The position numbers were made by a program, and so were the translations under genes. Below are positions 2,550-57,596 of a DNA stretch of 64,000 nt, piece by piece. A model generated the notes under the pieces. It saw nothing but the letters and a program-made list of their open reading frames with translations. It made no database searches and was not told the DNA's origin. Numbering within the stretch: the first letter of the stretch is position 1; every line of letters starts with the position of its first letter. The stretch comes from Candidatus Omnitrophota bacterium. GTDB lineage: Bacteria; Omnitrophota; Gorgyraeia; Zapsychrales; JANLHA01. Location of the stretch: the NCBI GenBank assembly GCA_040753435.1, contig JBFMEN010000069.1:47551-111550 (forward strand), written 5' to 3'.

Positions 2550-2554
2550 ATTTT

Positions 2555-2833: not shown

Positions 2834-2844
2834 AAATTTATGAA

Positions 2845-8526: not shown

Positions 8527-8541
8527 GCATGGAGGCGAGCT

Positions 8542-9399: not shown

Positions 9400-9445
9400 A
9401 CTTTTGTTTGGCGAACGGCTGAAATATGACGAACAGGAGATATCG

Positions 9446-10253: not shown

Positions 10254-10380
10254 GCACGAAATGAAAGGCGAGGTGGAATGAATCGGCAGCGGTTTTTTTA
10301 CCCGACCCCGGGAGCGAATACCGGGGGTGGAAATCGGAGAGATTATCAATGCCCGGGCATTAAGGATATAATTTGCAGAA

Positions 10381-11565: not shown

Positions 11566-11578
11566 GAAAGGAGAAAAG

Positions 11579-12004: not shown

Positions 12005-12020
12005 AATAAGGAGAATTGGT

Positions 12021-12422: not shown

Positions 12423-12457
12423 CAATAAAAAAGGGCTGAAGACTGAAAGGATGGGCG

Positions 12458-13000: not shown

Positions 13001-13013
13001 AGGAAGTTAATTA

Positions 13014-40366: not shown

Positions 40367-43300
40367 TTGTCTAAAAAAGGGGAGGAAATTAACTTGTGTA
40401 ATAAAAACATGAACAGGCAAAAATTACCATTGCTGCACCGGTTATTTTCCGCGGGGCTAAGCTTTGTCATAACACTGACTTTTTCTATTCCTGTCCATGC
40501 CCAGGAGGGGCTTGCCCTGAATGGAGTTGCGGCGTCTCCAATGCCGGTTTCCGTGGCGGTAACTGCTGCCCCTGTTGAAAATCCGGCGTTCATTCTTTCA
40601 AAAAAACCGGCGAATGGGGATGCTCCCTTTGTCCCCGTGATGATCAAAGGGATTAAACTCTTTCCGGATGACCCTCTGCGCGTTGATTTTTTCATTGATA
40701 CCGGCACCTCCAAATTACCCGACGTTGTTTTGGAAAAAGAGTTCTCCAGATTGATCTCCTATTTTCTGGCGGCATTAACCGTCCCGGATGACGACCTGTG
40801 GGTTAATTTATCGCCGTATGAAGAAGACCGCGTCATCCCGGAGGAATTCAGCCGTACCGGGATGGGCGCAGATTTGCTCGCCCAGGATTATCTTTTGAAA
40901 CAAGTGACATCCGCGTTTCTTTCACCTGAGGGGGAATCCGGCAAAAAATTCTGGGACCGTATTCGTGAAAAAACAGCGGAGCTTTACGGTGAAAAAGATA
41001 TTCCTGTCGAAGTTTTCAATAAAGTCTGGATCGTCCCGGAAAAGGCCGTTGTGCATGAAAGTGCGGACGGAGCCTTTGTCACGGAAAGCACGCTGCAAGT
41101 CATGCTGGAGGAAGATTATTTAAGTACCACAGAGCCCGGGAATCCCAGTACCCCAAAAAAATCTTTGGCTGGGGATCAGGGGAGCAGGGGAACCGGGGCA
41201 CTTACAAAAGAAATCATGCGAGCCATAATCATCCCGGAAATCGAAAAAGAGGTCAATGAAGGAGAAATCTTCGCCCCGTTACGGCAAGTCTATAATGCGG
41301 TTATTCTGGCGGCATGGTTTAAACGGAATTTTAAAGAGACGTTCTTGGGGAAAGCTTATATCGATCAAAATAAAGTCGGCGGCATCGATACCGCCGACGC
41401 GTTGATCAAAGATAAAATTTATCAGCAATATGTCGATGCCTTTAAAGCCGGGGCGTATGATTTTATTAAAGAAGACTATGATCCGGTTTCGAACGAGATC
41501 ATTCCGAGGCAATACTTTTCCGGGGGGCTTAAACTTGATCCGGATGGGGCCTATACGGAAGAGCCCTCTGCGAACGAGCCCGTCAAAGTGACCGTAGACG
41601 GCGCCATGCTTTCCGCGTCAGTCAAGCTTTCCCCCGAGAAGAAACCGCCGGATGATCAAGGCCGCTCCTCTTCAGAAAGTTCAGAAACGGATGAGTATTT
41701 GCAATCAGTTAAAGAAAAAGCAATTGCGGCGGTTCTTGCGATGAGTACCGGAGAAAAGACGACCAGGAGCTCATGGACCGAGAAACTTCTGTCCCTCGCA
41801 GCTCCTTATGTGATCGATGATTTTCCCACGCTCTATTATGATCAAATCCAGGAAGCAGAACAGGTGAAAAGGGTTTTATTATTGATGATTCGTGTAGATC
41901 TTGTTGGTGCTGTCTATTTTTCAATACCTGTTGATGCTGAAGAAATGGATAAGTGGGAAGGAGAATTGCGAAGAATAAAACCATTCATTTTGGGAAGGGA
42001 AGACAGGAAAGAGATCGATGATTTGTTAGAACTGGTCGGATTTGTCCGTAAATGGCTTGGTTTTTTTGGATCTGAGGCCGACGCAACGTTTCATATCGAT
42101 CATTTGATAAAACATGGATTTTTAAGGGACACGTTCACTACAACCGCTGAAAAAGCGCTGAATTCTTTTTTTGACATTTTGCTGCGAGGCAGCATACCCC
42201 CGGATTTTGATGAGACTCCTTATAACGAATTGCTATGGTTTCTTAATGAATCGGCATCAAATGAGAAGCAAACTGAATTTTTTCAAATCCGTTCGGAGTT
42301 TATTCGAAGTTTTATCGCTGTTAAAGATGCCGTAATTTCCAGCAAAAATTTCAGCGCGTCTTTACAGCATTTGCGAAGAAATTCATTTTTTAACTTTTTT
42401 GTGTTTTGGAGCGATGATTTAAAAGAAAGAACAGAAAAATTTGATAAAAAATTATTAAAAGAAAAAGTGATTGCCATTAATTCTGATGGAATGACAGAGG
42501 GCGAACTTGATGAGATCGATCCGAATATCCGGGAAATCAAAGAGGGGATACAAAATATCCGGAAGGCCATACCCCATACGGTCGACAAGGCCTCCGTTCT
42601 GGACATTCTGCTGGGGGAAGGAAATGAGAAGGTGTCTGAAGAGTTTTTCAAGCTGGCGTCGTTGTTGCGGTTGAGTTTTTCCTATGAAGGCACATTTACT
42701 GACTCACGCCCGCCTCTTAAATACGCGCTGGAGGAAGGGATCTATTTTTCAATCGGACCTGATTTGTATATCACTCCGGTCACGGAGGCTTTTCGCCGGC
42801 CGATGATTTTTTCCAAAAATGCCGACGGCTCGATCAAGTTTGCATTTGAGATTGTCATCAGCGGCGAGCAGTTCAGTAAATTATATACCGGGGCCCGCAA
42901 CCGGTATGATGTTTCGCTTGAATTGAAGAAAACTTATCCGGACAAAGAATATGGCGTGCAACCGATTTATTTCAGAAAATTTCCGAAATATGCCTTCACA
43001 TTTTATGGCCGGAGACGGCTTCCTTTTCTTGTCAAACCGCTGGAAGTGATCGCTTTCGATTATCAATATGACGGCAAACGCCTGAACAATGTTTCTTCAG
43101 AAATGATAGCGGTGTGGGCGAATGAGTTAGGGATCAGTCAGAAAGACGTGGAGTTAATGATTGCCGAACAGGTTGTTGAGGAAGTGGTGGCCATGCATGC
43201 CATGGGCTATGTCGGCAACGGGGAGAATCGTTATTTTAAGGGTGTCCTGTCCTATGACCAGCATATTGAGAATTTCCGTTGTATCTTTGACCCAGCAGAC

Positions 43301-43951
43301 AGACTGAAGCCTGTAAAGATTCTGTATGTCGGTGACTTTGTGTATTTCGAGAAAGTGGATTCACCGGAACGAAGAAAAAATGATGTGCTCAGCATTGCCG
43401 GCGGAATTTGCCATAATATCCATGGGTTAAGAGATCTGTTTAAGATTCTCACTGTTGAAGACATTTACGCGCTGTTCAAAGAAAAATACGCTGAATTCGG
43501 GATCGCGGAGAAATATCCGGAAGGTCTTGCGGCATCATCAACAGTGAACGACAATGAAGTATTGACGGAGCCGGACTCTGATGCCGATGAAAATTCGGAC
43601 AATCCGGATGCTGAAGGCGATCAGAAGGGGGCGGCAAATTTTGACGAGCAAGATGGCGTTGAAATTTTAACTGAGCAAACTGACGCCGACATCCCGCATG
43701 CCAATAAAAATGATGCAGTTCCCGACGGGGTGCTAAACGGCGGCACTGCCGATTCCGCCGAAAAAGGCGGTATTGACCTTACTGCGGGCAGGCTTGGCCT
43801 TGAAGTCAAAGGAAACAAGGGACAACCTGCGCAGCCCTTTTGCCGGAAGGGTTCATGTGTGGATATGGAAAGTATGGATATCTCCGGATTTGTTCCTGTT
43901 ATTCTTCGCGTGTCGGTGGCTGATTTGCAAGGAATTCCTGGCAGTCACTAA
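40367..43951 (+). CDS. Large exported hypothetical protein (1194 aa): paralog of the previous gene (shared N-terminal domain and C-terminal 'GGIDL' tail), long unique helical middle region
   Basis: Signal peptide (..FSIPVHAQEG). The N-terminal ~400 aa align with the upstream protein (WVNLSPYEEDRVIP; LLAQDYLLKQVT; FNKVWIVPEKA; VMLEEDY; NEGEIFAPLRQVYNAVILAAWFKR; IPRQYFSGG). An acidic linker precedes a C-terminal GGIDLT...FVPVILRVSVADLQGIPG. The likely true start is TTG 40394 (after AGGGGAGG) or ATG 40409. Confidence 0.6.
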   Translation: MSKKGEEINLCNKNMNRQKLPLLHRLFSAGLSFVITLTFSIPVHAQEGLALNGVAASPMPVSVAVTAAPVENPAFILSKKPANGDAPFVPVMIKGIKLFPDDPLRVDFFIDTGTSKLPDVVLEKEFSRLISYFLAALTVPDDDLWVNLSPYEEDRVIPEEFSRTGMGADLLAQDYLLKQVTSAFLSPEGESGKKFWDRIREKTAELYGEKDIPVEVFNKVWIVPEKAVVHESADGAFVTESTLQVMLEEDYLSTTEPGNPSTPKKSLAGDQGSRGTGALTKEIMRAIIIPEIEKEVNEGEIFAPLRQVYNAVILAAWFKRNFKETFLGKAYIDQNKVGGIDTADALIKDKIYQQYVDAFKAGAYDFIKEDYDPVSNEIIPRQYFSGGLKLDPDGAYTEEPSANEPVKVTVDGAMLSASVKLSPEKKPPDDQGRSSSESSETDEYLQSVKEKAIAAVLAMSTGEKTTRSSWTEKLLSLAAPYVIDDFPTLYYDQIQEAEQVKRVLLLMIRVDLVGAVYFSIPVDAEEMDKWEGELRRIKPFILGREDRKEIDDLLELVGFVRKWLGFFGSEADATFHIDHLIKHGFLRDTFTTTAEKALNSFFDILLRGSIPPDFDETPYNELLWFLNESASNEKQTEFFQIRSEFIRSFIAVKDAVISSKNFSASLQHLRRNSFFNFFVFWSDDLKERTEKFDKKLLKEKVIAINSDGMTEGELDEIDPNIREIKEGIQNIRKAIPHTVDKASVLDILLGEGNEKVSEEFFKLASLLRLSFSYEGTFTDSRPPLKYALEEGIYFSIGPDLYITPVTEAFRRPMIFSKNADGSIKFAFEIVISGEQFSKLYTGARNRYDVSLELKKTYPDKEYGVQPIYFRKFPKYAFTFYGRRRLPFLVKPLEVIAFDYQYDGKRLNNVSSEMIAVWANELGISQKDVELMIAEQVVEEVVAMHAMGYVGNGENRYFKGVLSYDQHIENFRCIFDPADRLKPVKILYVGDFVYFEKVDSPERRKNDVLSIAGGICHNIHGLRDLFKILTVEDIYALFKEKYAEFGIAEKYPEGLAASSTVNDNEVLTEPDSDADENSDNPDAEGDQKGAANFDEQDGVEILTEQTDADIPHANKNDAVPDGVLNGGTADSAEKGGIDLTAGRLGLEVKGNKGQPAQPFCRKGSCVDMESMDISGFVPVILRVSVADLQGIPGSH

Positions 43952-44125: not shown

Positions 44126-45544
44126 ATGCGTAACAGGAGCCAAATGTCTTTACCTGTTTATATCGAAACAATCCCGGCCGACCGATTTACTCCCGTTGTT
44201 GTTTTTAAGAAACTGAACGGAAAGGCGCTGCTGGAATCCGCAGTTCTTGAAATCGGCAAGAGCCGTTATTCGATTATCCTGGTTGAAGAGGCTTTTCGAT
44301 TGGTCCTTAATAACCGAGGCGTTTTAAAATACGAAGGATTGAAGGAAGAAATCCTTTCTCCGGATCCGCATAATTTTCTTTCTATTCTGGAGGGCCAGGG
44401 AAAAAACGTCGCATCATCGAAAGATTTTGGCATGCCGATTCCCGCTTCCGGAATAGGGTACCTCGGGTATGAAACAGCGGCGTTGTTTGACAAAATCCAT
44501 TTGTCAAAACAGGATGACGAACTTCAACTGCCCGATGCCATCTTTTTATTCGGATCACTGTTTATTGTCTTTGATCATTACAAGGATGAGCTTTACATCA
44601 TCGCTATTGATTATGACGGGCAGGGAAAAGAGAAAATTAAAACCGTTAAGGAACGGCTGATGGATTTTGATTTCAGGGCGTATCAAACCGATGAAAATTT
44701 TTATCATTGCACCGGACAGATTGAAGCCGGTAAAGAGGCGTATATCAGCGGAGTCAAAAAATTGAAAGAACACATCCGCGCCGGAGATATTGTTCAGGGC
44801 GTTCTTTCCCGGAGAATCACGATAAAAACTTTCCTGGATCCCCTTGATGCCTACTGCCGTTTAAGACGTATTAACCCCTCGCCGTATTTGTTTTATTTTG
44901 ACTTCACTGATTTTAAATTATTTGGCTCTTCACCCGAACTCATGGTTTCCTATAATGACGGGACAGCTACGATCAAACCGATTGCGGGGACCCGTTCCCG
45001 GGGGAAAACGCGCCAGGAAGACATTGCTTTGGAAAAAGATTTGCTGGCTGACGAAAAGGAGCGCGCTGAACATTTGATGCTCGTTGATCTTGCGCGGAAT
45101 GATTTGGGACGAACGGCAAAACCCGGGACGGTGAGTCCCAGATCGTTATATTCGGTGGAGCGGTATTCCCACGTCATGCATATTGTGTCGGAGATTGGAT
45201 CACAGGTGGCCAGAGACTATAACGCGTATGACCTCATAAGAACGACCTTTCCGGCTGGAACAGTGACCGGCGCTCCTAAAATCAAGGCGATGGAGCTGGT
45301 ATCTGATTATGAAAACGTCAAGCGGGGACCTTATGCCGGGCTGGTCGGCCATTTTGACATGAACGGAAATTTTGATTCATGCATAACGATCAGATCCATG
45401 ATCCATAAGGAAGGAACATATTATATTCAAGTCGGGGCCGGGATTGTTTATGATTCCGTACCGGAGCGGGAGTTTGACGAAACAATGAAGAAAGCAGGGG
45501 CGATGATCAGGTCTTTGGGAATAAATCTGGAGAGTGGTCTCTAG
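44126..45544 (+). CDS. trpE: Anthranilate synthase component I
   Basis: LMLVDLARNDLGR, FPAGTVTGAPKIKAMELVS and GPYAGLVGHFDMNGNFDSCITIRS. The start is probably the second Met at 44144 (RBS AGGAG at 44135). Confidence 0.85.
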   Translation: MRNRSQMSLPVYIETIPADRFTPVVVFKKLNGKALLESAVLEIGKSRYSIILVEEAFRLVLNNRGVLKYEGLKEEILSPDPHNFLSILEGQGKNVASSKDFGMPIPASGIGYLGYETAALFDKIHLSKQDDELQLPDAIFLFGSLFIVFDHYKDELYIIAIDYDGQGKEKIKTVKERLMDFDFRAYQTDENFYHCTGQIEAGKEAYISGVKKLKEHIRAGDIVQGVLSRRITIKTFLDPLDAYCRLRRINPSPYLFYFDFTDFKLFGSSPELMVSYNDGTATIKPIAGTRSRGKTRQEDIALEKDLLADEKERAEHLMLVDLARNDLGRTAKPGTVSPRSLYSVERYSHVMHIVSEIGSQVARDYNAYDLIRTTFPAGTVTGAPKIKAMELVSDYENVKRGPYAGLVGHFDMNGNFDSCITIRSMIHKEGTYYIQVGAGIVYDSVPEREFDETMKKAGAMIRSLGINLESGL

Positions 45545-45563
45545 GCCGATAAAAGCGAGGTTA

Positions 45564-47186
45564 ATGATGATTCTTATGATTGATAATTATGATTCATTTA
45601 CGTACAACATTGTTCAACTTGTTGAGACTCTGGGCTATAAAGTCAAATCGGTGCGTAATGATGAAATCACCTTGGATGAAATCGGCCGGATGAAGCCTTC
45701 ACACATCATTATTTCACCTGGGCCGGGAGATCCATCAGATGCCGGTATTTCGCTTAAAGTTATCCGTCGCTTTGGCTCAAAGATTCCAATCCTTGGCGTT
45801 TGTCTTGGTCATCAATGCATCATCCAGGCTTACGGCGGAAAAATTATCGGCGCGCAAAAAATTGTTCATGGAAAAACTTCGCAAATTGTGCATGACAACA
45901 AAGGACTTTTCCGTAATATTCCTCAAAATGCCGCAGTTGTCCGGTACCATTCATTGTGTGGCGATCCGGTTTCATTGCCGGAATGCCTTGAAGTGACCGC
46001 TGAGACGATTGACGATAAGACGATTATGGGCGTTCGTCACCGTAACTATCAGGTGGCGGGAGTGCAATTTCATCCCGAATCGATCGGTACGGAAATAGGC
46101 AGAAAACTAGTTCAGAATTTTTTTAATTATAAAATTGAGGAGCCGCAGAAGTTCGCGTTATTAAGCAAACTGATGCAAAAGACAAACTTAACGTTGATGG
46201 AAAGTTATGCTTTGATGGATGAGGTTACCGATGGCGAATTAACGGAAAGTCAACTGGGGGCTTTTCTGGGAGCGTTAAATGTCAAAGGCGTTACGCCGAC
46301 TGAATTAACTGGTTTTGTCCGTGTGCTTCGGGAGAAGACAGGAGTTCAATCCCAATTGAAAGGGTTGATCGATACGTGCGGAACCGGCGGTGACGGCAAG
46401 CATACCTTCAATATTTCAACGGCAGCTTCTCTTATTTGCGGGGCTGCCAATCTGAAAGTGGCCAAGCATGGTAATCGGGCGATGAGTTCAAAATCGGGAA
46501 GTTTTGACTTTTTAGACGCGCTGGGAATTGAAACCCAGGGGGATTTGAAAACCAATTTGTCTTCCATTCGAGAAAATAACTTCGCTTTCTTTTTTGCCCA
46601 AAAATTTCATGCCGCAATGCGCCATGTGGCAAAAACGCGCCAGGAGCTTAAGACCCGGACCGTCTTTAATATGATAGGTCCGCTCGCCAATCCGATGCCG
46701 CTGACCTATCAAATAACCGGTGTTTTTTCTTCCGGGATTCTGGATTTGTTTATTGAGACCATGAAAAAACTTGGAAGAAAACACGCGATGGTAGTTCATT
46801 CATGTGACGGGCTTGATGAAATAAGCGTGTGTGAAAAGACTATGGTCAGGGAATTGAAAAATGGTAAAATTCTGGCGTATGAGATCGACCCAAAAGATTA
46901 CGGAATCCCGGGTTTCAGCCTGAAAGATCTGGAAGGGAAATCCGCTTTGGACAACGCGGAAGTTTTTAGGCGTATCATCGGAAAGAAGAAACTGCCCAGA
47001 CGATTTTCGGCGATTAAATCTGCGATTTGTTTGAATGCAGGCGCTGCTATTTATGTCGGGAATAAGGCTAAGACGATCAGGGAAGGATATGAAGCCGCGT
47101 TGAGGATTATTGAAAGTAAAAATTTTGAAAATTATATACAAAGGCTTGCCAGGCGGCAGACTGGCGCCGGGACTGGTCGTAAGTGA
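45564..47186 (+). CDS. trpGD: Anthranilate synthase component II (glutamine amidotransferase) fused to anthranilate phosphoribosyltransferase (TrpG-TrpD)
   Basis: Class I GATase (ILMIDNYDSFTYNIVQ; GVCLGHQ; catalytic H...E region), then TrpD motifs (CGTGGDGKHTFNISTAAS; GNRAMSSKSGSFD). The ATG at 45564 follows AGCGAGG. Confidence 0.85.
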   Translation: MMILMIDNYDSFTYNIVQLVETLGYKVKSVRNDEITLDEIGRMKPSHIIISPGPGDPSDAGISLKVIRRFGSKIPILGVCLGHQCIIQAYGGKIIGAQKIVHGKTSQIVHDNKGLFRNIPQNAAVVRYHSLCGDPVSLPECLEVTAETIDDKTIMGVRHRNYQVAGVQFHPESIGTEIGRKLVQNFFNYKIEEPQKFALLSKLMQKTNLTLMESYALMDEVTDGELTESQLGAFLGALNVKGVTPTELTGFVRVLREKTGVQSQLKGLIDTCGTGGDGKHTFNISTAASLICGAANLKVAKHGNRAMSSKSGSFDFLDALGIETQGDLKTNLSSIRENNFAFFFAQKFHAAMRHVAKTRQELKTRTVFNMIGPLANPMPLTYQITGVFSSGILDLFIETMKKLGRKHAMVVHSCDGLDEISVCEKTMVRELKNGKILAYEIDPKDYGIPGFSLKDLEGKSALDNAEVFRRIIGKKKLPRRFSAIKSAICLNAGAAIYVGNKAKTIREGYEAALRIIESKNFENYIQRLARRQTGAGTGRK

Positions 47187-47211
47187 ACAGTCCTTCGATA
47201 ACACGACGTCT

Positions 47212-48420
47212 ATGAGTAAATATTTTGGACAATTCGGCGGACAGTATGTGGGCGAGGTTTTAAAACCCGCGCTGATCGAACTTGAGAAAGCGGTGCGGGA
47301 TATTTTACCCTCAGCAGATTTTCAAAATAATCTTGGCGAAATGCTGAAGAATTATGCCGGCCGTCCGACACCGTTATATTTCGCAGAGAATGCTACGCGT
47401 GATCTGAATGGAGCAAAAGTTTATATTAAACTTGAAGGTTTAGCGAACACCGGCGCGCATAAAATTAACAATGCCCTTGGACAGGTGCTGCTTGCGAAAA
47501 AAATGGGGAAACGGAGGGTGATCGCTGAAACCGGCGCTGGGCAACATGGGGTGGCAACCGCGGCAGCCGCCGCCAAGCTCGGACTGGAATGTGAAGTTTT
47601 TATGGGCGCGGTTGATGTTCGGAGACAACAGCCGAATGTTTTTTTGATGAAACAATATGGAGCAACGGTGACTGAAGTAAACGAAGGGACGCGGACGTTA
47701 AAAGATGCCGTGAACCGCGCCTTGAAAGAATGGGCTGTTCGCTCTAATGACACTTTCTATGTGCTCGGCTCGGCCCTGGGTCCGTATCCTTATCCTGATA
47801 TGGTTCGTGAATTCCAGTCTGTTATCGGGAGGGAGATCCGTGATGAAATCCTTAAACGAGAAGGCCGCCTGCCGGATATTTTGATCGCCTGCTGCGGCGG
47901 AGGATCCAACGCGATAGGGACATTTACATCATTTATGAATGATGCGCTGGTCAAAATGATCGCGGTTGAAGCCGGCGGCACTGGTGATAAACCGGGTGAG
48001 CATGCAACACGGATGAAGGGGGCCGGACGGCTCGGGATCATTGAAGGGTATAAATCATTTTTCCTCCAGGATGAAGATGGTCAGGTCCTTCCGACCCACT
48101 CCATATCTGCCGGGCTTGATTATGCAGGGATCGGACCGCAGGTGGCCTTGATGGGAGTTGAGGGGCGTATTCAATTTGAAAAGGCTTGTGATCAGGAGGT
48201 CCTGAAGGCGTATCAGTATTTCGCCAGAAAAGAAGGTTTGCTATTCGCCCTTGAATCTGCACATGCAGCCGCACACGCGTTAAAAATCATTCCCGGGTTA
48301 TCAAAGAATCAAATTGTAGTGATTACAATGTCGGGCCGCGGAGACAAGGATATTTTTATTACTGCCAAAGAACTGTACACGGAAGAGTGGAAGAAGTTTT
48401 TAAAAAATGAAAGCAATTAG
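47212..48420 (+). CDS. trpB: Tryptophan synthase beta subunit
   Basis: FGQFGGQYV at the N-terminus, PLP-lysine region GLANTGAHKINNALGQ and GGGSNAIG. The true start is the ATG at 47212; the listed ORF at 47110 overlaps trpD. Confidence 0.9.
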   Translation: MSKYFGQFGGQYVGEVLKPALIELEKAVRDILPSADFQNNLGEMLKNYAGRPTPLYFAENATRDLNGAKVYIKLEGLANTGAHKINNALGQVLLAKKMGKRRVIAETGAGQHGVATAAAAAKLGLECEVFMGAVDVRRQQPNVFLMKQYGATVTEVNEGTRTLKDAVNRALKEWAVRSNDTFYVLGSALGPYPYPDMVREFQSVIGREIRDEILKREGRLPDILIACCGGGSNAIGTFTSFMNDALVKMIAVEAGGTGDKPGEHATRMKGAGRLGIIEGYKSFFLQDEDGQVLPTHSISAGLDYAGIGPQVALMGVEGRIQFEKACDQEVLKAYQYFARKEGLLFALESAHAAAHALKIIPGLSKNQIVVITMSGRGDKDIFITAKELYTEEWKKFLKNESN

Positions 48421-49230: not shown

Positions 49231-51165
49231 ATGCGGTCTCTTCAAAATTTTTCTTATTATCTATCCCGATTTGTTTTCTGGCTTTTTCCAGCCATTGTGC
49301 TGGAGCCTGTTTTCTTTATGCAGTTTTTGCCGACTCCTACCGGGGTCGTTATTATTTATCTTGAGGTTCTGGTCTGGGGTATTTTATTATTTTTAACAAT
49401 CTTCTTTTTTTCCGGTTTCTACGCAAGCAGTGTTGATTTGATCACGGAACGTTCTCCCGTCATTTATCTCTCCCAAATCAAATCGAACTTTAAACGATTC
49501 TGGTTTCCGTATACAATTTTTCTTGCTACCCCTTATATTATTCACCTTGTTTTTTACTTTTTTTCCTATATTCAAGATTCGGAATCGTTGAATATCCGGC
49601 TTATTCGGGGCGCATTGGATGGTATTTTGCTGCTTGTTTTCATAAGCGTAATCATGAAGCGAAAGGAAAAAGAATTTAATTGTTTCGAGTTTTTCAGGTA
49701 TGTACTTTTAACTCCCCGATTTTTTGTATTTTTGATCTTTGCCGCGCTTATTTTTCTTTGTGAATTTTTCTATATCCAGATCCCTTTGAATTACAGATCC
49801 TGGTTAGCGCTGTTATTGATTACAATGAATCAGTTCCTTCATTTCAGTCTCTTAAGCGTTTTGTTAAACGCGGTTTATTTATCGAATAAAACGATCTTTA
49901 CGCGTAATGACGCCCCCGAGATTTATTTTGTTGATCCGTCCAGCCCCGGTATTTATCGATCCGTGATTGCGGGCTTGATGTCGGAAGGATCCGGTATCTT
50001 TTCATTAATTAAAGCGCTGACTCCCCCGAAATATAAATTAAAAGAGTTTCGATGGGTTATGTGGCGAAATGAGATGTTCTGCGATGGAAAACTTGTCGCC
50101 ATTACATGTTTTACATCAAATTGCGCGGAAGCTTATTGGGTTGCCAAACGGTTTAAAGAAAGAGGATCCAAAGTGGTCATGGGAGGGCCTCATGTCATGT
50201 TTATGACGGAGGAAGCTCTGACATTTTGCGATTCAGTCGTTATGGGTGAGTTGGAGACCGTTTGGGAAGAAATTATAAAAGATTTTGAAAACGGGGCGAT
50301 GAAACCAGTCTATGATCGCAGGTGTGAAGATGTTCCAGAGCGGATTTGGGAAAAAGTCCGGGATTTGTCCGGAAAAGAATTGGAACCCATTCTTCAAATC
50401 GGGAGGGGCTGTAAATACAACTGTGATTTTTGTTCGATTTCAGCGATGACGAACAGAAAAATCCGTTATTTCAACCTTGATCATGTGGTTGATATGGTAA
50501 AGAAGGTGACAAATTTCCGTCCCGGAAAGTGGCTTCTTTTTTTTGACAGCAATATTTATTTGAATCCTCAACGGTTCCGGGAATTCGCTGAAAGGATGAT
50601 TCCTTTTAAGATCAAATGGAATTCGTCGTGCAGTATCGACATTGCCGGGAATGAAGAGGACCTGGCTCTGGCGAGAAAATCCGGTTGCGAAGCATTACTG
50701 ATTGGTTATGAAGTTTCTGACGAATCACCGGAGGCAGCGAAAGGCGGCAAGTTTTCTTATGCGAAAAAATATGTCGAGATGACTAAAAAAATTCACAAGG
50801 CCGGGATAGGCGTTAAGGCTCACTTTATGTGTGGATTTGAGAAGGAAGATACTAAAGTTTTATTTCGTTTATGGTGGCTGTCCTTCAGATTATTCCCAAT
50901 GACGGCGGCTGTTCTTGTGTTGACGCCTTTCCCCGGCACTGCTGTTACAAACAAACTTTTTAATGAGGAGCGGATTAATAATTTAAATTGGGCCAATTAT
51001 GATTGTATAAATCTTGTTTTTGAACACCCGTCATTTAACCCTGTTCTTTTTAAGTTGTTTTTCCCGGTCTTTCTCACCTTTTTCTTTTTGACGACCAGCC
51101 GATTAGGAATATTTCTCATGGGTTTACTAATATGGCAAAGCTTTTTGTCTGGTTTTTTGCATTAA
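49231..51165 (+). CDS. Membrane-anchored B12-binding-domain radical SAM protein
   Basis: About 250 aa of polytopic hydrophobic N-terminus. Then a cobalamin-binding-like Rossmann region (KLVAITCFTSNCAEAYWVAKRFKERGSKVVMGGPHV) and the radical-SAM cluster motif GRGCKYNCDFCS (CxxxCxxC). Additional C-terminal hydrophobic helices. The start codon is uncertain. Confidence 0.6.
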   Translation: MRSLQNFSYYLSRFVFWLFPAIVLEPVFFMQFLPTPTGVVIIYLEVLVWGILLFLTIFFFSGFYASSVDLITERSPVIYLSQIKSNFKRFWFPYTIFLATPYIIHLVFYFFSYIQDSESLNIRLIRGALDGILLLVFISVIMKRKEKEFNCFEFFRYVLLTPRFFVFLIFAALIFLCEFFYIQIPLNYRSWLALLLITMNQFLHFSLLSVLLNAVYLSNKTIFTRNDAPEIYFVDPSSPGIYRSVIAGLMSEGSGIFSLIKALTPPKYKLKEFRWVMWRNEMFCDGKLVAITCFTSNCAEAYWVAKRFKERGSKVVMGGPHVMFMTEEALTFCDSVVMGELETVWEEIIKDFENGAMKPVYDRRCEDVPERIWEKVRDLSGKELEPILQIGRGCKYNCDFCSISAMTNRKIRYFNLDHVVDMVKKVTNFRPGKWLLFFDSNIYLNPQRFREFAERMIPFKIKWNSSCSIDIAGNEEDLALARKSGCEALLIGYEVSDESPEAAKGGKFSYAKKYVEMTKKIHKAGIGVKAHFMCGFEKEDTKVLFRLWWLSFRLFPMTAAVLVLTPFPGTAVTNKLFNEERINNLNWANYDCINLVFEHPSFNPVLFKLFFPVFLTFFFLTTSRLGIFLMGLLIWQSFLSGFLH

Positions 51166-51768
51166 CGCTATTTCAAGTGACAGAATCTGGAAGGCGTAAA
51201 CGCTGATGATGGCCCAAATGATGAAGTTGTGAAAAGGGATTTTAAAAGCAAGGATCACATCAATGAAAATAAAAATGATGAGACCTGTGCGCCCGTACTG
51301 GTTCATCCTGACAATTAAATCAACCATAGAAAAGGCATGAAGCTCGCTGGAAAGTTTTTCGGAAAGTTCGAAAAGAGACATTCTTTCTAAAGATTCTTTT
51401 GGATAGCGCCGTTCAATGATAGGAAGGATTGTGTTTTTGATGAAATGCCGTTCCTTACTTTCGAAAATCAGCATGATGATAAAAATTAATGTGGCTGCGG
51501 CAAGTATGGCGGGGTGAAAAAGATTTCTGGCGGTGATGGCAACAATGAGTGCAGACAGAACCATTTTTAAGGACAGCCCGGCTGTATGGATTATCGAGAT
51601 TGTTTGTTTCCCTGAGACGGGGCTTTTTTTGATGATTTGAAGCGACCAGTAACGTGCAGCCAAATCGTTGAAGATAGTCGCAGCGATCATTCTTGAAGAA
51701 GAGAGTTTAGCCGCTGTTTTTGGAACAGGAATTATTAATTGCCCGGTTGATTGTTGAGGATTTTCCAT
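51127..51768 (-). CDS. Hypothetical polytopic membrane protein
   Basis: A 213-aa ORF with at least four hydrophobic helices and no recognised motif. Convergent with the rSAM gene, with a ~39-nt 3' overlap. Confidence 0.4.
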   Translation of the reverse strand: MENPQQSTGQLIIPVPKTAAKLSSSRMIAATIFNDLAARYWSLQIIKKSPVSGKQTISIIHTAGLSLKMVLSALIVAITARNLFHPAILAAATLIFIIMLIFESKERHFIKNTILPIIERRYPKESLERMSLFELSEKLSSELHAFSMVDLIVRMNQYGRTGLIIFIFIDVILAFKIPFHNFIIWAIISVYAFQILSLEIALMQKTRQKALPY

Positions 51769-52724
51769 AATTCTTTCGGCTCCTGGCCAACTCGCCAGAA
51801 CGCGACTTTTTTGACCTTTTGTTGATTATACGCGTCGATTTTCGATGTCAAGGATTGGAGGTCTTCAAAGTGTACCGAGATATTGACTGTGTCCTGATAC
51901 TCAAAATACGGGCTGCCGCTTTCGGTCAGTTTGATAGAGCACCTTTTTTCCTGGCACAACTGAAGGGTCTCTGGATGTTTAAGTGCTTTAGCCAGCGTTT
52001 CGATTTGCCATGACCGTCCGTAAAGGGGAAGACCCATTACAAGCTTTTCTTCCGGAATATGTATTCGTGAAAAATCCAGGACCTTTTTGCACCAATCAAG
52101 TGATGCAATCGGGCCGGGAGGGCCTGTTCGCCAATGCTCATCATAAGCCATAACAATGACGCGGTCAGCAATCCCTGCAATTACAGCATAATCAAAAGGA
52201 TTTTCCGTGCTCCACCATCTGGCGGGAACGGCAACGGAAAATATTTTAGTTTTTGGAAGCTTGTCTCTAATCTCCTGCAGAAAAGACAAGTAAGAATCCT
52301 TATCTTCCCAGTTAAGCGATTCAAAATCGATCTGAATCCCGTCGAAATTTGCCGAAAGTTCGATGATATCGGCAATCAGCTGGTTTCGCAATGGAAAGTC
52401 CGGCCGTAAACAGAAATTTAGTATTGTTTTGTTCCAGGGCGCTGAAATGACCAGATGGATCCGCACAGGCTTATCGAATTCGCCTTTCAAATCCGGTCGT
52501 TGGATATCTTTCTTCAGAGCGCCTTGTTCATTAATGGCTGCACTGAAGTAACCGATGTCCGTAAATGGCATTGAATTGCTCAAATATGTTTCTTCACCTT
52601 TCATTACGTATCCCCACACTTCAGGAAAGACATAATTTTTCTGAGAAGTCTGATCAGCTGTCCTGACTGGAAATGTTAATACCAGCAAGGCGGCAAGAGA
52701 GAAAAGAAAAATTTTGATTTTCAT
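51735..52724 (-). CDS. Glycoside hydrolase family 18-like protein (secreted)
   Basis: Signal peptide, then the GH18 catalytic-type motif FDGIQIDFES (compare DGIDIDWE) and upstream strand motifs. Confidence 0.6.
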   Translation of the reverse strand: MKIKIFLFSLAALLVLTFPVRTADQTSQKNYVFPEVWGYVMKGEETYLSNSMPFTDIGYFSAAINEQGALKKDIQRPDLKGEFDKPVRIHLVISAPWNKTILNFCLRPDFPLRNQLIADIIELSANFDGIQIDFESLNWEDKDSYLSFLQEIRDKLPKTKIFSVAVPARWWSTENPFDYAVIAGIADRVIVMAYDEHWRTGPPGPIASLDWCKKVLDFSRIHIPEEKLVMGLPLYGRSWQIETLAKALKHPETLQLCQEKRCSIKLTESGSPYFEYQDTVNISVHFEDLQSLTSKIDAYNQQKVKKVAFWRVGQEPKELWKILNNQPGN

Positions 52725-53284
52725 AAATAAAAGCCTGCAATTTTTTCTTTGATTGAATCCGAGGTTTCTTTGTTTAAGAGTTTTGCGATTATGGCCAGGG
52801 CAAACTGAATCGCAGTTCCTGCACCCCGGCTGGTGATGACGTTGCTGTCGATTACGACAGCTTCCTCGACGAATACCGTAGATTCATTAAAAGAATCTTC
52901 CATGCCGGGAAAACATGTTGCTTTTTTTCGATCCAAGATACCGGCCGGAGCAAGCACCAGGGCCGGCGCTGCGCAAATAGCGGCAATGAGTTTCTTTTCA
53001 CGGTTCATTATTGTTAAAAAGGAACTAACCAAATCGGATTTCGCGAGATTGGGTGAGCCCGGAGTTCCGCCGGGTAAAATACAGGCATCAAAGTCTGAGC
53101 CGGCACTCTCCAAAGCGATATCTGTCTTGATGGCAATGCCGTGGGAACCCGTTACAAAATTTTCTTTGTTATTCAATCCTGCAATCATCACGTCAATGCC
53201 GGCCCGGCGAAGGATATCAATGGGAGTAACTGCTTCAATTTCTTCAAAACCGTCCGCCAAAATAATCAACGCGCTTTTTTTCAT
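52721..53284 (-). CDS. DJ-1/PfpI (ThiJ/YajL) family protein
   Basis: ALIILADGFEEIEAVTPIDILRRAGIDV..., nucleophile elbow AAICAAP and ...ITSRG. Start taken at MKKSAL; AAAGG lies 9 nt upstream on the minus strand. Confidence 0.8.
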   Translation of the reverse strand: MKKSALIILADGFEEIEAVTPIDILRRAGIDVMIAGLNNKENFVTGSHGIAIKTDIALESAGSDFDACILPGGTPGSPNLAKSDLVSSFLTIMNREKKLIAAICAAPALVLAPAGILDRKKATCFPGMEDSFNESTVFVEEAVVIDSNVITSRGAGTAIQFALAIIAKLLNKETSDSIKEKIAGFYL

Positions 53285-53485
53285 AACAACCGACCTTTTG
53301 TTAATACATTCATTTTCCGAATTCATATGTCAAATAATTCGTATGTGATGAATAATTTTAGATGAAAAAAAGTTTTTTTACAACCCATTTCACGTCCAAG
53401 GATTTTTCTTGAAAATTTTTTTAAAATGACATAAAGTAGTGGCAATCCGGCAATCGGGCTGGTTTGAAATTGAAAGGGGGATGGT

Positions 53486-54115
53486 ATGAAGAAGATTTGG
53501 TTTATGTTTGCATGTTTGACGATGTGTGCGGGTTTGGTGATGTCATCAGCGGCGATTGCGCAAGAAGAAGAAATATATCCCGTTCAGATTTCACTATTCA
53601 ATCCTGCGCAGATTTTCCCACAAGACACATCAATCTCCGGGTTGCGCATTAACTTTATTTATGGTTTAAACGAAAATGTCACAGGTCTTGATCTTGGTAT
53701 CGCCAATATGACCAACGGGAATTTTAAAGGTTTGGGTTATGGTTTGATTAATTATACCAAGGGGAATGTGACCGGGGAGCAAGGCGGCCTGGTGACTTTT
53801 GTTGAAGGTGATGTTATCGGCGCGATCTCGGGTCTGGTGGCGATCGGCCAGGGGGATGTCAGCGGCGGTTCTGCCGGTTTTGTTAATTATGTAAACGGGA
53901 ATGTCTCAGGCGCCATGTTCGGCGGTTTGAACTATTCATCTAATATGGAAGGGCTTCAGCTTGGTGTTGTGAACTATACTGAAGAAATGGACGGATTCCA
54001 GTTTGGGTTAGTAAACTGGACCGCCAGACTCCAGGGACTTCAAATTGGTTTATTAAACATCGCATCGGAAAAAGAAATGCTTCCGATCCTTCCATTTGTC
54101 AATGCCGCTTGGTAA
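53486..54115 (+). CDS. Secreted Gly/Asn-rich repeat protein (probable outer-membrane/surface protein)
   Basis: Signal peptide (MFACLTMCAGLVMSSAAIAQE), then ~17-aa quasi-repeats G(L/F)xNYxxGNVxG... (GLINYTKGNVTGEQGG; GFVNYVNGNVSGAMFGG; GVVNYTEEMDGFQFG; GLVNWTARLQGLQIG). Ends ...NAAW. Confidence 0.5.
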   Translation: MKKIWFMFACLTMCAGLVMSSAAIAQEEEIYPVQISLFNPAQIFPQDTSISGLRINFIYGLNENVTGLDLGIANMTNGNFKGLGYGLINYTKGNVTGEQGGLVTFVEGDVIGAISGLVAIGQGDVSGGSAGFVNYVNGNVSGAMFGGLNYSSNMEGLQLGVVNYTEEMDGFQFGLVNWTARLQGLQIGLLNIASEKEMLPILPFVNAAW

Positions 54116-54298: not shown

Positions 54299-55069
54299 AT
54301 GAAGGTTGTGATTCTGGCAGGAGGTTACGGCTCCCGGTTGGGGACAATAACCGAAGTTGTGCCAAAACCGATGGTCAAGATCGGGAACAAGCCCATTCTA
54401 TGGCATATCATGAAGTATTTTTCGTCTTTCGGTCATAAAGATTTTGTGTTAAGTCTGGGCTATAAAGCGGAAGTTATCAAAGACTTCTTTTATCATTATC
54501 ATATCCAGGTTAATAATTTTACAATTCAATTAGGCAGCAAAAAGATAGACTTTCATGATGCCCACGATGAAGCCGATTGGAGCGTCACGCTGGTTGATAC
54601 CGGCATAGATACCCTTAAAGGGGCCCGTATAAAAAGACTTGAACGATTTTTGGATGATGTGAATTTGTTGACGTATGGGGACGGGCTTGCGGACGTCGAT
54701 ATTAATAAACTGGTCGCCTTTCATCGGTCGCATGGAAAGATTTTGACTGTCACCGGAGTTTATCCTCCCGCACGTTTTGGCGAGATTATTGCCAAAAAAG
54801 GTGAGGTAACTGCGTTTCAGGAGAAAAAACAAACATCATCTGGAAGGATTAATGGCGGTTTTATGATTTTTGATAAACGCCTTCTGGAATATTTATCCGA
54901 TGAGGAATTTTGCGATTTGGAGTTTGAAATTTTTCCACGCCTGGTCGCCAAAGGCGAGATGATGGTTTATGACCATGACGGAAGTTGGGAATGCATTGAT
55001 ACGGAACGGGATCTCCTGCATTTGAACAAATTATGGCGCGATGGATTGGCATTTTGGAAAAAGTGGTGA
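54299..55069 (+). CDS. rfbF: Glucose-1-phosphate cytidylyltransferase
   Basis: MKVVILAGGYGSRLGTITEVVPKPMVKIGNKPILWHIM matches the RfbF/DdhA N-terminus almost residue for residue. Confidence 0.85.
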   Translation: MKVVILAGGYGSRLGTITEVVPKPMVKIGNKPILWHIMKYFSSFGHKDFVLSLGYKAEVIKDFFYHYHIQVNNFTIQLGSKKIDFHDAHDEADWSVTLVDTGIDTLKGARIKRLERFLDDVNLLTYGDGLADVDINKLVAFHRSHGKILTVTGVYPPARFGEIIAKKGEVTAFQEKKQTSSGRINGGFMIFDKRLLEYLSDEEFCDLEFEIFPRLVAKGEMMVYDHDGSWECIDTERDLLHLNKLWRDGLAFWKKW

Positions 55070-55176
55070 CGCGAATATCGAAATCCGAAGTAAATTAAAA
55101 TATCAAACAAAACAATATTTATAAATTTTGATTTAAAAATTATTTTCCGGATCCGGATTTTCGGCATTCGAATTTC

Positions 55177-56271
55177 ATGAACAAACTTTTCAAAAATATA
55201 TATCACAACCGCAGAGTTTTTATCACCGGCCATACCGGCTTCAAAGGATCATGGCTCGCGTTCTGGCTGAGAAAGATGGGGGCTGAAGTCTTTGGTTATT
55301 CTCTCGAGCCTCCGTCAGACCCGAATCACGCCAGTCTTTTGGATTTGGATATTCAGAGCATGATCGCCGACATCAGAGATCGAGATGTTCTTTATGGCGC
55401 CATTAAAGATTTCCAACCCGAGATTGTTTTTCACCTTGCCGCCCAACCGTTAGTCCGGTATTCGTATCAATATCCTGTTGATACGTTTGAAACAAATGTC
55501 ATGGGTTGTGTTTTTTTGTTTGACGTCTGCCGTCAGGTCAACTCTGTTCGAGCCATCATTAACGTCACCAGTGATAAATGTTATGAAAATAAAGAACGGA
55601 TGGAAGGGTACCGAGAGGACGATCCGATGGGAGGGCATGATCCTTACAGTTGTTCAAAAGGTTGTGCGGAGTTGGTCACTACAGCTTACCGGCGGTCATT
55701 TTTTCCGATTGAAGAGTTTGGTCATAGCCATCATGTCCTTGTCGCCAGTTGTAGGGCCGGCAATGTTATCGGTGGAGGAGATTGGGCCCAGGATCGTTTA
55801 ATTCCCGATATTATCAGAGCAGTTGCCTGCCGGGAATGTGTTAGAATCCGGCACCCGCAAGCAATTCGTCCATGGCAGCATGTGCTTGAACCGTTAAGCG
55901 GCTATCTTCTTCTGGGACAGAGATTGCTGGAGGGGAAAAAAGAGTTTTCGCAGGCATGGAATTTTGGCCCGGGCAAGGGTGATGTTCGATGTGTCGAAGA
56001 CGTTGTCAAGGGAATGTCATTTCAGTGGGACAGAGTTTCTTATCATTTTGATGAAGGCGAACATCTTCATGAAGCGAAGGTGCTGCAGTTAAATTGTGAT
56101 AAAGTCAACACGATTATGAACTGGAGTGAGGTTTGGGACGTTGATGAAGCTATTCGCCGGACAGCTATCTGGTATAAAAAATTTTATGAAGAAAAAGCGG
56201 TTGTAACTGAAAATGACATTTCGGATTATGTCAATCACGCACGTAATAAAGGAATCGTATGGGCGGTTTAA
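55177..56271 (+). CDS. rfbG: CDP-glucose 4,6-dehydratase
   Basis: VFITGHTGFKGSWLAFWL (NAD Rossmann), the YSCSK catalytic YxxxK region and the overall SDR-extended pattern of RfbG/DdhB. Confidence 0.85.
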   Translation: MNKLFKNIYHNRRVFITGHTGFKGSWLAFWLRKMGAEVFGYSLEPPSDPNHASLLDLDIQSMIADIRDRDVLYGAIKDFQPEIVFHLAAQPLVRYSYQYPVDTFETNVMGCVFLFDVCRQVNSVRAIINVTSDKCYENKERMEGYREDDPMGGHDPYSCSKGCAELVTTAYRRSFFPIEEFGHSHHVLVASCRAGNVIGGGDWAQDRLIPDIIRAVACRECVRIRHPQAIRPWQHVLEPLSGYLLLGQRLLEGKKEFSQAWNFGPGKGDVRCVEDVVKGMSFQWDRVSYHFDEGEHLHEAKVLQLNCDKVNTIMNWSEVWDVDEAIRRTAIWYKKFYEEKAVVTENDISDYVNHARNKGIVWAV

Positions 56272-57596
56272 ATCCTGAACAAATAAAAGCTGATATTTTA
56301 TGCCGGGTCAAAGAGTATTATCACGCGACATTCGGCCAGCCGGAGGATTTTAAACCAGGCAAAAGCCCGGTGGCATATGCCGGCCGTGTCTTTAATGAAA
56401 ATGAAATGACTAATCTCGTTGATTCCGCCCTTGAATTCTGGTTGACTTATGGACGTTATTCAAAAGAGTTTGAGTATCGTTTGGCTGAATATTTGGGATT
56501 AAGGTGGTCTCTTGTCGTGAATTCCGGCTCATCGGCAAATTTATTAGCCTTCATGGCCTTGACGTCGCCACTTTTGAAGGAACGACGTGTCCGGAGGGGT
56601 GATGAGGTTGTTACTGTTGCCGCGGGATTTCCGACAACAGTGGCGCCGATGATTCAGTATGGCGCAGTTCCTGTCTTTGTGGATGTTGACCTCGAAACCT
56701 TTAACATCGATATCACTCAATTGCAAAGGGCGTTGACCGATAAAACAAAGGCTGTGATGCTGGCGCACACCCTTGGGAATCCATTTAATATTGACGCGGT
56801 TCAGGCATTTTGCAGCGCCCATGGGCTTTGGTTAATTGAGGATAACTGCGATGCGCTTGGCTCAACATATAACGGGAAACTGACCGGGACATTCGGCGAT
56901 ATCGGGACGAGCAGTTTTTACCCTCCCCATCATATCACCATGGGAGAAGGCGGGGCGGTTTATACGAGCGATCCTCTGTTAAGGAAGATTATGCTTTCAA
57001 TCCGGGACTGGGGTCGCGACTGCTGGTGTGACAGCGGGCGGGATGATACCTGTGGACAGCGTTTTAACGGCCAGTTTGGATCCCTGCCTTTCGGGTATGA
57101 TCATAAATATGTGTACAGTCATTTCGGATATAATTTGAAAGCGACCGACCTTCAGGCCGCGGTGGGCTGCGCGCAGTTAGAAAAACTTGATGAGTTCACG
57201 CGGAAACGCAAAGAGAATTTTCGCGCCTTTTATGAAGGGCTTAAAGGTCTGGATGAGTATTTTATTTTACCCAAATCTACAGAGAAAAGTGATCCGTCCT
57301 GGTTCGGGTTTCTTCTGACATTACGGGATGGCGTTGCGTTTAAACGTAATGATCTTGTCGAATATTTAGAAGGCAAAAATATTCAAACTAGAAATCTTTT
57401 TGCCGGTAATCTCACCCGGCATCCGTGCTTTGAATCTTTAAACGAGGGCGTCGATTATCGCATCGCAGGAAATTTGTCGAATACGGACAAGATCATGAAC
57501 GACAGCTTCTGGTTCGGGGTGTATCCGGGGATGGATAAAAACTTAGTTGACTATATTATTAGAACAATAAAGGAGTTTATTCTTGAAAATAGATGA
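56259..57596 (+). CDS. rfbH: CDP-6-deoxy-D-xylo-4-hexulose-3-dehydrase (RfbH/DdhC, PMP-dependent, DegT family)
   Basis: SLVVNSGSSANLLAF, FGDIGTSSFYPPHHITMGEGGAV and an N-terminus typical of RfbH. Confidence 0.8.
   Translation: MGGLNPEQIKADILCRVKEYYHATFGQPEDFKPGKSPVAYAGRVFNENEMTNLVDSALEFWLTYGRYSKEFEYRLAEYLGLRWSLVVNSGSSANLLAFMALTSPLLKERRVRRGDEVVTVAAGFPTTVAPMIQYGAVPVFVDVDLETFNIDITQLQRALTDKTKAVMLAHTLGNPFNIDAVQAFCSAHGLWLIEDNCDALGSTYNGKLTGTFGDIGTSSFYPPHHITMGEGGAVYTSDPLLRKIMLSIRDWGRDCWCDSGRDDTCGQRFNGQFGSLPFGYDHKYVYSHFGYNLKATDLQAAVGCAQLEKLDEFTRKRKENFRAFYEGLKGLDEYFILPKSTEKSDPSWFGFLLTLRDGVAFKRNDLVEYLEGKNIQTRNLFAGNLTRHPCFESLNEGVDYRIAGNLSNTDKIMNDSFWFGVYPGMDKNLVDYIIRTIKEFILENR

Follow-up and report, generated by a model that had tools for sequence, protein, structure and literature searches.

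The radical S-adenosylmethionine (SAM) gene that follows the trp operon in the 64,000-nucleotide stretch of Candidatus Omnitrophota DNA analysed here (contig JBFMEN010000069.1; hereafter, the window) encodes one component of what is very probably a two-protein functional unit in the membrane. The protein, hereafter rSAM, belongs to the radical SAM superfamily, with a CxxxCxxC motif in a partial TIM barrel, and is of class-B type by domain architecture, its use of cobalamin being putative. Its catalytic domain faces the cytoplasm and is clamped to the membrane at both ends. The second component is a small protein with four transmembrane (TM) helices, hereafter the partner, encoded by a convergent gene whose 3' end runs into that of rSAM; the initial annotation, made from the sequence alone, missed this gene, which is the most informative feature of the locus. 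The explanation that we favour, tentatively, is a 12-TM two-subunit radical SAM enzyme that works at the cytoplasmic face on a membrane-resident, lipidic substrate. A known catalytic fold is here set in a membrane-integral, two-component and sometimes fused architecture that is without precedent in the literature searched and among the families compared.

The rSAM open reading frame (ORF) begins with ATG, and the concern that its hydrophobic N-terminus might be the artefact of a mis-called start can be dismissed, since about 90 homologues of about 620–660 aa keep the same architecture; 36 aligned homologues (608–677 aa) begin at the same position, and the family hidden Markov model (HMM) matches about 45 genomic ORFs from positions of about 1–9. 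Kyte–Doolittle profiling revealed about six hydrophobic segments over aa 11–212 and two over aa 602–643. The AlphaFold2 (AF2) model, built with the 36-member alignment (mean predicted local distance difference test score, pLDDT, 88.4; predicted template modelling score 0.86), contains N-terminal helices at residues 7–30, 39–71, 80–111, 122–145, 163–183, and 191–218, and C-terminal helices at 604–622 and 624–643. The several TM helices proposed earlier for the N-terminus are therefore retained, in a module of about 218 rather than about 250 aa, and the hydrophobic C-terminal helices proved to be a two-helix TM hairpin. Neither the N-terminal TM module nor the hairpin has a Pfam or NCBIfam match even at E ≤ 10.

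Twelve residues separate the end of TM6 from the first strand of the Rossmann-like, cobalamin-binding-type region recognised in the initial annotation. This region was corroborated by a Pfam B12-binding match (PF02310; aa 288–348, E = 4.5e-7, 30.1 bits, just short of the gathering score of 32.1), which is precomputed for most homologues as well, and by the five-stranded Rossmann fold of the AF2 model (strands 230–235, 269–274, 288–292, 314–318, and 335–339); the GGPH motif at 318–321 is invariant. The Radical_SAM domain was assigned by Pfam to aa 389–539 (E = 4e-10). The previously quoted cluster motif was located as RGCKYNCDFCSI (nt 50404–50439), and translation confirmed its three cysteines, C394, C398, and C401, which are invariant in the 36-member alignment. 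An auxiliary Fe-S cluster on C293, C333, and C486 was considered and set aside, as these residues, judged by sequence, appear to belong to ordinary family motifs. The window copy falls in a divergent sub-clade, with a best identity of 44%, a score of 750 bits against the family HMM (positions 7–635), and departures from the consensus at several loop positions. Its exact 644 aa sequence is missing from a collection of 15 billion proteins, where the product of the adjoining partner gene is present as MEW5895953.1; the public record of the rSAM gene may have a different start or no call.

Across the family, the six N-terminal helices and the hairpin obey the positive-inside rule. The mean numbers of lysine plus arginine residues (K+R) are 2.3 at the N-terminus, 0.2 in loop 1–2, 3.9 in loop 2–3, 0.9 in loop 3–4, 5.4 in loop 4–5, 0.6 in loop 5–6, 2.7 after TM6, and 0.3 in the hairpin turn, which places the N-terminus inside and the catalytic domain in the cytoplasm, with minimal periplasmic exposure. 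Conservation outside the catalytic domain was computed over 169 distinct full-length members. In the N-terminal module, position E25 of TM1 is acidic in 75% of them, N86, W91, K145, and the aromatic residues of TM6 are conserved, and the cytoplasmic loop after TM2 carries the motif SG-YG--VE--SGEE (aa 61–75), which is degenerate in the window copy. At the other end, N584, N586, W587, and H599 are conserved directly ahead of the hairpin, the turn of which holds a conserved TTS--G motif (T621, T622, S623, and G626, the latter in 92% of members). The conserved intramembrane and interfacial residues of the N-terminal module are more than plain anchoring would require.

In the window and in every context first inspected, an unannotated ORF of about 186–213 aa was found on the opposite strand after the rSAM gene, and these ORFs are mutually homologous; three further contexts contained the partner in the same arrangement. 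A partner HMM, iterated over ORFs of 120–300 aa until convergence, yielded 41 matches (E from 1e-35 to 1e-77; 2.9e-35 for the window ORF, which is identical to MEW5895953.1, locus tag AB1650_09415). All 41 directly adjoin the 3' end of a full-length rSAM gene, which in tandem arrays is the final copy, and 40 are convergent with it; the single co-directional partner (locus L040, 58–2123) overlaps the rSAM 3' end by 34 bp. The partner HMM found no match elsewhere in about 1 Mb of loci and none beside the shorter paralogues described below. When the iteration was left unconstrained, rSAM ORFs were drawn into it, the source being a natural fusion ORF in L046. Among 34 pairs, the 3' ends overlap by 4–46 bp in 15, are 0–50 bp apart in 16, and are further apart in three, so that 31 lie within 50 bp. 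Counted over 46 non-redundant loci, a separate partner is present in 38, a fused one in one, a contig end cuts the region in two to three, and no adjacent partner was found in four, whose genomes hold other copies with partners.

The partner has four TM helices with both termini in the cytoplasm, the mean K+R along the chain being 7.9, 0.0, 6.5, 0.4, and 2.3. It has no Pfam (E ≤ 10), NCBIfam, or PADLOC match; an AF2 model based on an 8-member alignment reached a pLDDT of 69.5, and its best Foldseek match in the PDB had an E-value of 3.5. A relationship between the partner and the TM module of rSAM was rejected (hhalign probability 0.3%).

That the two proteins act together is supported by natural fusions. 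In P0178 (845 aa) and P0185 (865 aa), a complete partner homologue forms the N-terminus of rSAM, followed by the N-terminal TM module, the B12 domain, and the rSAM domain; the partner HMM covers positions 6–201 of 202 in P0178 (E = 2.2e-35) and also matches P0185 (E = 2.1e-27). Both fusions lie in one locus without a separate partner gene, P0185 occurs on five contigs, and the partner parts of the two have different sequences, which marks the fusion as old and maintained and not as a product of misassembly. The topology permits it, with the partner termini and the N-terminus of the TM module all inside. The partner and the adjacent rSAM also diverge together, their pairwise distances being correlated with a Mantel r of 0.77 (permutation p of about 5e-4); shared descent of linked genes adds to this correlation, which is therefore supporting evidence and not proof. 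The median identity is 21% for the partner, 20% for the N-terminal TM module, and 45% for the catalytic part of rSAM. Furthermore, only proteins with the N-terminal TM module come with a partner, and the short forms lack both. Considering the fusion, co-divergence, specificity, and linkage, a 12-TM complex (6 + 2 + 4 helices), in which the two proteins would interact physically, is the most economical reading.

Two other genes were observed next to the fusions in L087, L046, and L088: a 572 aa lipid-kinase-like gene with NTP_transf_3, DAGK_cat, and YegS_C domains between the two fused rSAM genes (L087, 2855–4573), and a 73 aa ORF directly upstream of the 865 aa fused gene.

Table 1. Features of the rSAM–partner locus (window positions) and Tad/Flp sites at related loci (positions within the locus named).
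Feature	Position	Strand	Basis or remark
rSAM gene (644 aa, stop codon included)	49231..51165	+	ORF list, about 90 full-length homologues, 36-sequence alignment, AF2
N-terminal six-helix TM module, aa 1–218	49231..49884	+	hydropathy, AF2, K+R counts, conservation
Rossmann-type B12-binding-like domain, aa 230–360	49918..50310	+	
Radical SAM partial TIM-barrel core, aa ~385–565	50383..50925	+	
CxxxCxxC [4Fe-4S]/SAM cluster motif, C394/C398/C401	50410..50433	+	alignment, translation
C-terminal two-helix TM hairpin, aa 604–644	51040..51162	+	hydropathy, alignment, AF2, conservation
Partner gene, 213 aa four-TM protein, MEW5895953.1 'hypothetical protein'	51127..51768	-	ORF, partner HMM, alignment
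Partner N-terminal cytoplasmic motif TI--D----RWF, here TIFNDLAARYWSLQ	51637..51678	-	D35, W41 invariant; translation
Partner central-loop motif TLYQ--E--S-KY-IPSLVD, here MSLFELSEKLSSELHAFSMVDLI	51313..51381	-	E137, S147 nearly invariant; translation
Convergent 3'-end overlap, 39 bp	51127..51165		
Tad/Flp site, L005	12981-17366		
Tad/Flp site, L008	8765-13141		
Tad/Flp sites, L011	39-2114, 9468-11976		
Tad/Flp site, L017	11579-13678		
Tad/Flp site, L091	10518-12349		

A database search for relatives of rSAM revealed about 90 proteins of 608–677 aa with identities of 33–44%, many of them covering 90–98% of the query. A scan of one genome per species returned more than 500 relatives, the best 80 of which were kept; among these 80, the full-length form was found nearly only in metagenome-assembled genomes (MAGs) of Candidatus Omnitrophota, the exceptions being a few bins labelled 'uncultured Planctomycetales' and one labelled Elusimicrobia. 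Three forms can be distinguished by architecture and by score on the family HMM: the full-length form (630–665 aa, more than 570 bits), with both the N-terminal TM module and the C-terminal hairpin; a short form of Omnitrophota (about 440–470 aa, 370–490 bits), with the hairpin only; and relatives in other phyla (about 430–510 aa, 220–300 bits), which have no TM segments and often occur in arrays of four to five genes. Such tandem arrays of four to five soluble B12-rSAM paralogues of about 430–510 aa were observed in loci L075–L086 (e.g., L076 5932–11629, L082, L084, and L086), hosted by Planctomycetota, Anaerolineales, Saganbacteria, Clostridia, and a gammaproteobacterial MAG, and may represent a separate biosynthetic system.

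Two to four full-length copies each were counted in several MAGs (e.g., JAKQKX, JAIORP, MHHG01, PEAF01, CAZFON, and JAZDPD), and at least two on the complete chromosome OY759724. Among the 46 non-redundant loci, 37 hold one copy, eight hold two in tandem, and one holds three in tandem. A profile of the N-terminal TM module searched against 1.84e9 representative proteins matched 96, nearly all of them the same fusion of about 640 aa or N-terminal fragments of it, which makes the module specific to this enzyme family; essentially no standalone module and none joined to other enzymes was present among the matches. A complete 277 aa gene encoding the N-terminal module only (P0145) was seen on an ENA contig of 1350 nt, where a further gene starts 111 bp after it and is cut off by the contig end; the arrangement could reflect a frameshift or an enzyme split over two genes.

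Firm clustering of rSAM with a characterised soluble family, envisaged in the initial annotation as a competing outcome, was not observed. The NCBIfam scores lie roughly five- to tenfold below the cut-offs: the window protein obtained 65.4 bits against 481 for BchE (TIGR02026), 63 against 600 for PhpK, 59 against 577.6 for HpnJ, 58 against 251 for TIGR04013, 56 against 360 for the ladderane radical SAM family TIGR04072, and 24.9 against 650 for HpnR. All 36 aligned members match models of the COG1032 group weakly, the best family-wide match being HpnJ (E = 2.5e-30), far under its cut-off, and no curated family cut-off was reached in the scan of these members. The class-B families of COG1032 (BchE, HpnJ, PhpK, TIGR04013, and TIGR04072) resemble rSAM in placing a Rossmann B12-type domain at the N-terminus ahead of a CxxxCxxC TIM-barrel core, to which the rSAM family adds the six-TM N-terminal module, the C-terminal TM hairpin, and the four-TM partner; to our knowledge, the COG1032 class-B families are not polytopic membrane proteins.

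The nearest solved fold is that of AprD4 (PDB 6fd2), the radical SAM 1,2-diol dehydratase of apramycin biosynthesis, at 14–16% identity; AprD4 is also the best solved relative by sequence (E = 5e-12, core only). The AprD4 model NF033070 is matched weakly by 22 of the 36 members (best E = 3.2e-13), the window protein is not among its matches at E ≤ 0.01, and no aminoglycoside genes occur in the contexts of the loci. Fold matches to solved cobalamin-dependent radical SAM enzymes include MgmA (9ccb), TsrM (6wte), CysS (9n1b), TokK (7kdx), and OxsB; the first four share 12–17% identity with rSAM and have neither TM segments nor a partner. MprF, in which a cytoplasmic catalytic domain is joined to an extensive TM region for handling a lipid substrate, offers an analogy of architecture only: its chemistry is different, and no sequence or fold relationship is expected. 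With the lipid-acting enzymes HpnP/HpnR, GrsA/B, the glycerol dialkyl and glycerol monoalkyl glycerol tetraether (GDGT and GMGT) methylases, Ted, Tes, and the bacterial Mss, many of which are B12-dependent, rSAM would share radical SAM chemistry on membrane-embedded hydrocarbon chains. For Tes, GrsA, and Mss, the comparison was one of architecture, drawn from the literature, and the NCBIfam matches included no model for these enzymes; Tes homologues have 0–1 predicted TM helices and an unclear membrane status (PMC8941075). No description of a polytopic B12-dependent radical SAM protein, of the rSAM family, or of the partner was found in the searchable literature, and public entries for family proteins are named 'radical SAM protein', 'YgiQ family', or 'hypothetical protein'.

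Considering these data, the following mechanism could be proposed. The six N-terminal helices, the C-terminal hairpin, and the four partner helices would form a single 12-TM membrane body carrying the Rossmann and radical SAM domains on its cytoplasmic face. The [4Fe-4S] cluster held by C394, C398, and C401 would cleave SAM to a 5'-deoxyadenosyl radical, which would attack an unactivated C-H bond of a membrane-resident substrate arriving sideways from the bilayer at the active site. The likeliest substrate class would be lipidic, such as a polyprenyl-linked intermediate or a chain of acyl, alkyl, or isoprenoid type, and the outcome could be either a methylation mediated by cobalamin or, independently of cobalamin, a rearrangement or elimination. 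In the methylthiotransferases MiaB and RimO, the equivalent domain serves an Fe-S cluster, and we know of no sequence motif diagnostic of cobalamin binding.

A lipid- or membrane-cofactor-modifying function, suggested in the initial annotation, remains plausible and is the leading reading, although genes of lipid biosynthesis are not conserved beside the pair. In its favour, the N-terminal TM module is found in this family alone and has conserved intramembrane and interfacial residues, the conserved motifs in the TM parts of rSAM and the partner are all cytoplasmic and the periplasmic loops are minimal, and HpnJ as the best family-wide NCBIfam match points to a membrane substrate. The B12-dependent radical SAM enzymes that modify hopanoids and GDGTs are a precedent for radical chemistry on membrane hydrocarbons, and Omnitrophota MAGs often contain homologues of ether-lipid genes and some contain homologues of genes for membrane-spanning lipids (PMC11868695); on these grounds a lipidic substrate was ranked first.

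Several observations weigh against this assignment. The NCBIfam comparison gave no specific sequence affinity to the characterised lipid enzymes (HpnP, HpnR, HpnJ, and the ladderane family) or to BchE, the inspected contexts of the homologues contained no hopanoid genes, and the contexts of the pair are heterogeneous. The nearest structural relative, AprD4, is a soluble enzyme acting on an aminoglycoside or soluble sugar, and its B12-like domain reportedly contains no cobalamin. The TM parts of rSAM and the partner matched no known fold. Housekeeping lipid enzymes do not usually come as two to four fast-diverging copies per genome or in tandem arrays, and the recurrence of Tad/Flp genes near a minority of loci hints at a protein substrate. 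Cobalamin biosynthesis, moreover, is not universal in Omnitrophota (PMC10066038). A broader hypothesis, of a dedicated intramembrane radical SAM machine fed laterally and functionalising C-H bonds of lipid tails or of a protein TM helix (e.g., in Flp pilins), with the partner as a substrate gate, we regard as possible and rather speculative.

The hint at a protein substrate could be developed into an alternative in which the enzyme modifies a membrane protein or peptide, for example by radical C-methylation of the helix of a Flp-type Tad pilin or of the partner at D35, W41, E137, or S147. Genes of the Tad machinery do adjoin the pair or the short forms in several independent arrangements. TadZ-CpaF-type ATPases follow the pair in L005 and L008 and lie within 3–4 kb of it in L011 and L017, and in L091 a tadB/tadC-like T2SSF-T2SSF operon ends with the partner gene. 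A set of genes for a peptidyl-prolyl isomerase, RcpC, secretin, and ATPase follows the short forms in L053, L061, L066, and L069 and, in L064, flanks the short form on the other strand; ATPase genes convergent with the short forms abut them in L056 and L064, and arrays of four to five Flp-type pilin genes with a G/xxxEY motif are present in L011 and L064. The many diverging paralogues per genome and the arrays of two to three enzymes with one partner would suit protein or peptide modification, for which class-B radical SAM enzymes exist, MgmA being the second-best structural match. However, Tad or pilin genes within 6–8 kb are missing from more than 80% of the loci, including the window, and Tad systems are common in Omnitrophota (PMC10066038), so some adjacency is expected. 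In addition, the partner goes with the N-terminal TM module rather than with the catalytic domain, and one lineage carries it as a fusion with the enzyme; both points fit a subunit better than a substrate that is turned over. A protein substrate is considered unlikely but a serious rival, given the many fast-evolving copies and the recurrence of Tad genes in several arrangements. A further alternative is that the TM segments and the partner merely tether or regulate an enzyme with a soluble substrate, such as a nucleotide-sugar or glycan intermediate, and that anchoring is general in Omnitrophota; the position of AprD4, a sugar diol-dehydratase, as best structural neighbour, the fast evolution of the TM parts (about 20% identity), and a 2026 preprint reporting that membrane-anchored cytoplasmic domains are common in the giant proteins of this phylum are all in line with it. 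Sugar genes are also found near some loci: a glycoside hydrolase family 18 (GH18) gene and nucleotide-sugar genes (54299–59364, downstream of the pair) in the window, GT-C and GT2 glycosyltransferase genes in L089, and epimerase, DegT, or GT9 genes in L003 and L007. These contexts are not conserved, though, the N-terminal TM module is unique to the rSAM family, and eight TM helices, a four-TM partner, and conserved intramembrane and interfacial residues far exceed the needs of anchoring, which makes simple tethering improbable.

Response-regulator genes adjoining the pair in some sub-clades could suggest a signalling or sensing device instead of a biosynthetic enzyme. In one sub-clade, a stand-alone receiver protein of 125 aa is encoded directly upstream and co-directionally in L007 (9547–9924), L031 (5434–5814), L034 (5496–5873), and L044 (4996–5361), and in another, receiver proteins of 261–268 aa, whose genes share a transcription unit with the partner or diverge from rSAM, are encoded in L001 (12578–13363), L025 (7986–8771), L005 (8285–9091), and L008 (4199–5005). 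Response regulators are, however, abundant in general and missing from most loci, the window included, and we know of no sensor based on a radical SAM protein. A mobile or defence-type two-gene module would likewise be self-contained, multi-copy, fast-evolving, and found in varied contexts, as this pair is; against this, no mobility genes recur at the loci, and the GC content of the window is not atypical. The PADLOC match of rSAM to PDC-M51A is weak and reflects generic similarity to radical SAM and B12 domains, the partner having no match, and a defence system was rejected as a candidate. Both ideas are thus very improbable, and the lipidic substrate remains our preferred reading.

Radical SAM enzymes acting on lipids matter for membrane biology and for lipid biomarkers, and how they gain access to substrates buried in the bilayer is a puzzle, since the Tes homologues examined have no more than one predicted TM helix. 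The rSAM family offers a natural example, amenable to structural work, of a catalytic domain that would form part of a 12-TM body together with a dedicated partner. Should the substrate indeed be lipidic, Omnitrophota, which are widespread and uncultured, would contain undiscovered modified lipids, with a bearing on how environmental lipid records are read. If it is a pilin or another membrane protein, a new post-translational modification would be tied to the Tad machinery, which is thought to underlie the predatory or parasitic lifestyle of Omnitrophota. An intramembrane radical SAM machine, should it exist, would be the radical-chemistry counterpart of intramembrane proteases, with several specificities per Omnitrophota genome. 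Independently of the substrate, the N-terminal TM module and the partner define two new protein families, for which there is no Pfam or NCBIfam model.

The wider surroundings of the pair are variable. The rSAM gene begins 49 bp past trpA, downstream of trpE, trpG-D, trpB, and trpA as confirmed by Pfam, in agreement with the initial annotation; trp genes adjoin rSAM in the window only, so this linkage is incidental. Clustering of all flanking ORFs revealed no universal family and none present in more than about one quarter of the loci. Around the pair, the search for structured RNAs, promoters, and terminators gave no Rfam match and nothing above shuffled sequences. Nearly every ORF of at least 180 aa in the window is on the plus strand, and the GC skew is positive throughout the 64 kb. 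The sole real minus-strand block (51127–53326) comprises overlapping genes for a DJ-1/PfpI protein (52721–53326), the GH18 protein (51735–52724), and the partner, which ends this three-gene block, so that the pair is located at the junction of two convergent transcription units.

Within the trp operon, trpG and trpD are fused into one gene for a 550 aa protein (GATase and Glycos_transf_3 domains; 45534–47186); the listed trpB (47110–48420, TTG start) overlaps it by 77 bp and hence probably starts further downstream. Neither trpC nor trpF was seen between trpD and trpB. The region of L089 looks like a polyprenyl-phosphate glycosylation cluster rich in radical SAM genes: a GT-C gene with TMEM260_N and PMT_2 domains (1638–3203) lies directly upstream of the pair, and genes for GT2, a PMT_2-TPR protein, and three tandem B12-rSAM proteins of 534–540 aa follow downstream (6601–13182). 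In the window, a plus-strand ORF of 209 aa (53486–54115) has a signal-peptide-like N-terminus, Gly/Asn-rich repeats of the G-VNY--G-V-G type, and no Pfam match at E ≤ 0.01. Just upstream of the trp operon, also on the plus strand, there are a 1194 aa ORF without a Pfam domain at E ≤ 1e-5 (40367–43951) and a gene for a 952 aa protein with an internal DnaJ domain and HEAT repeats (37455–40313).

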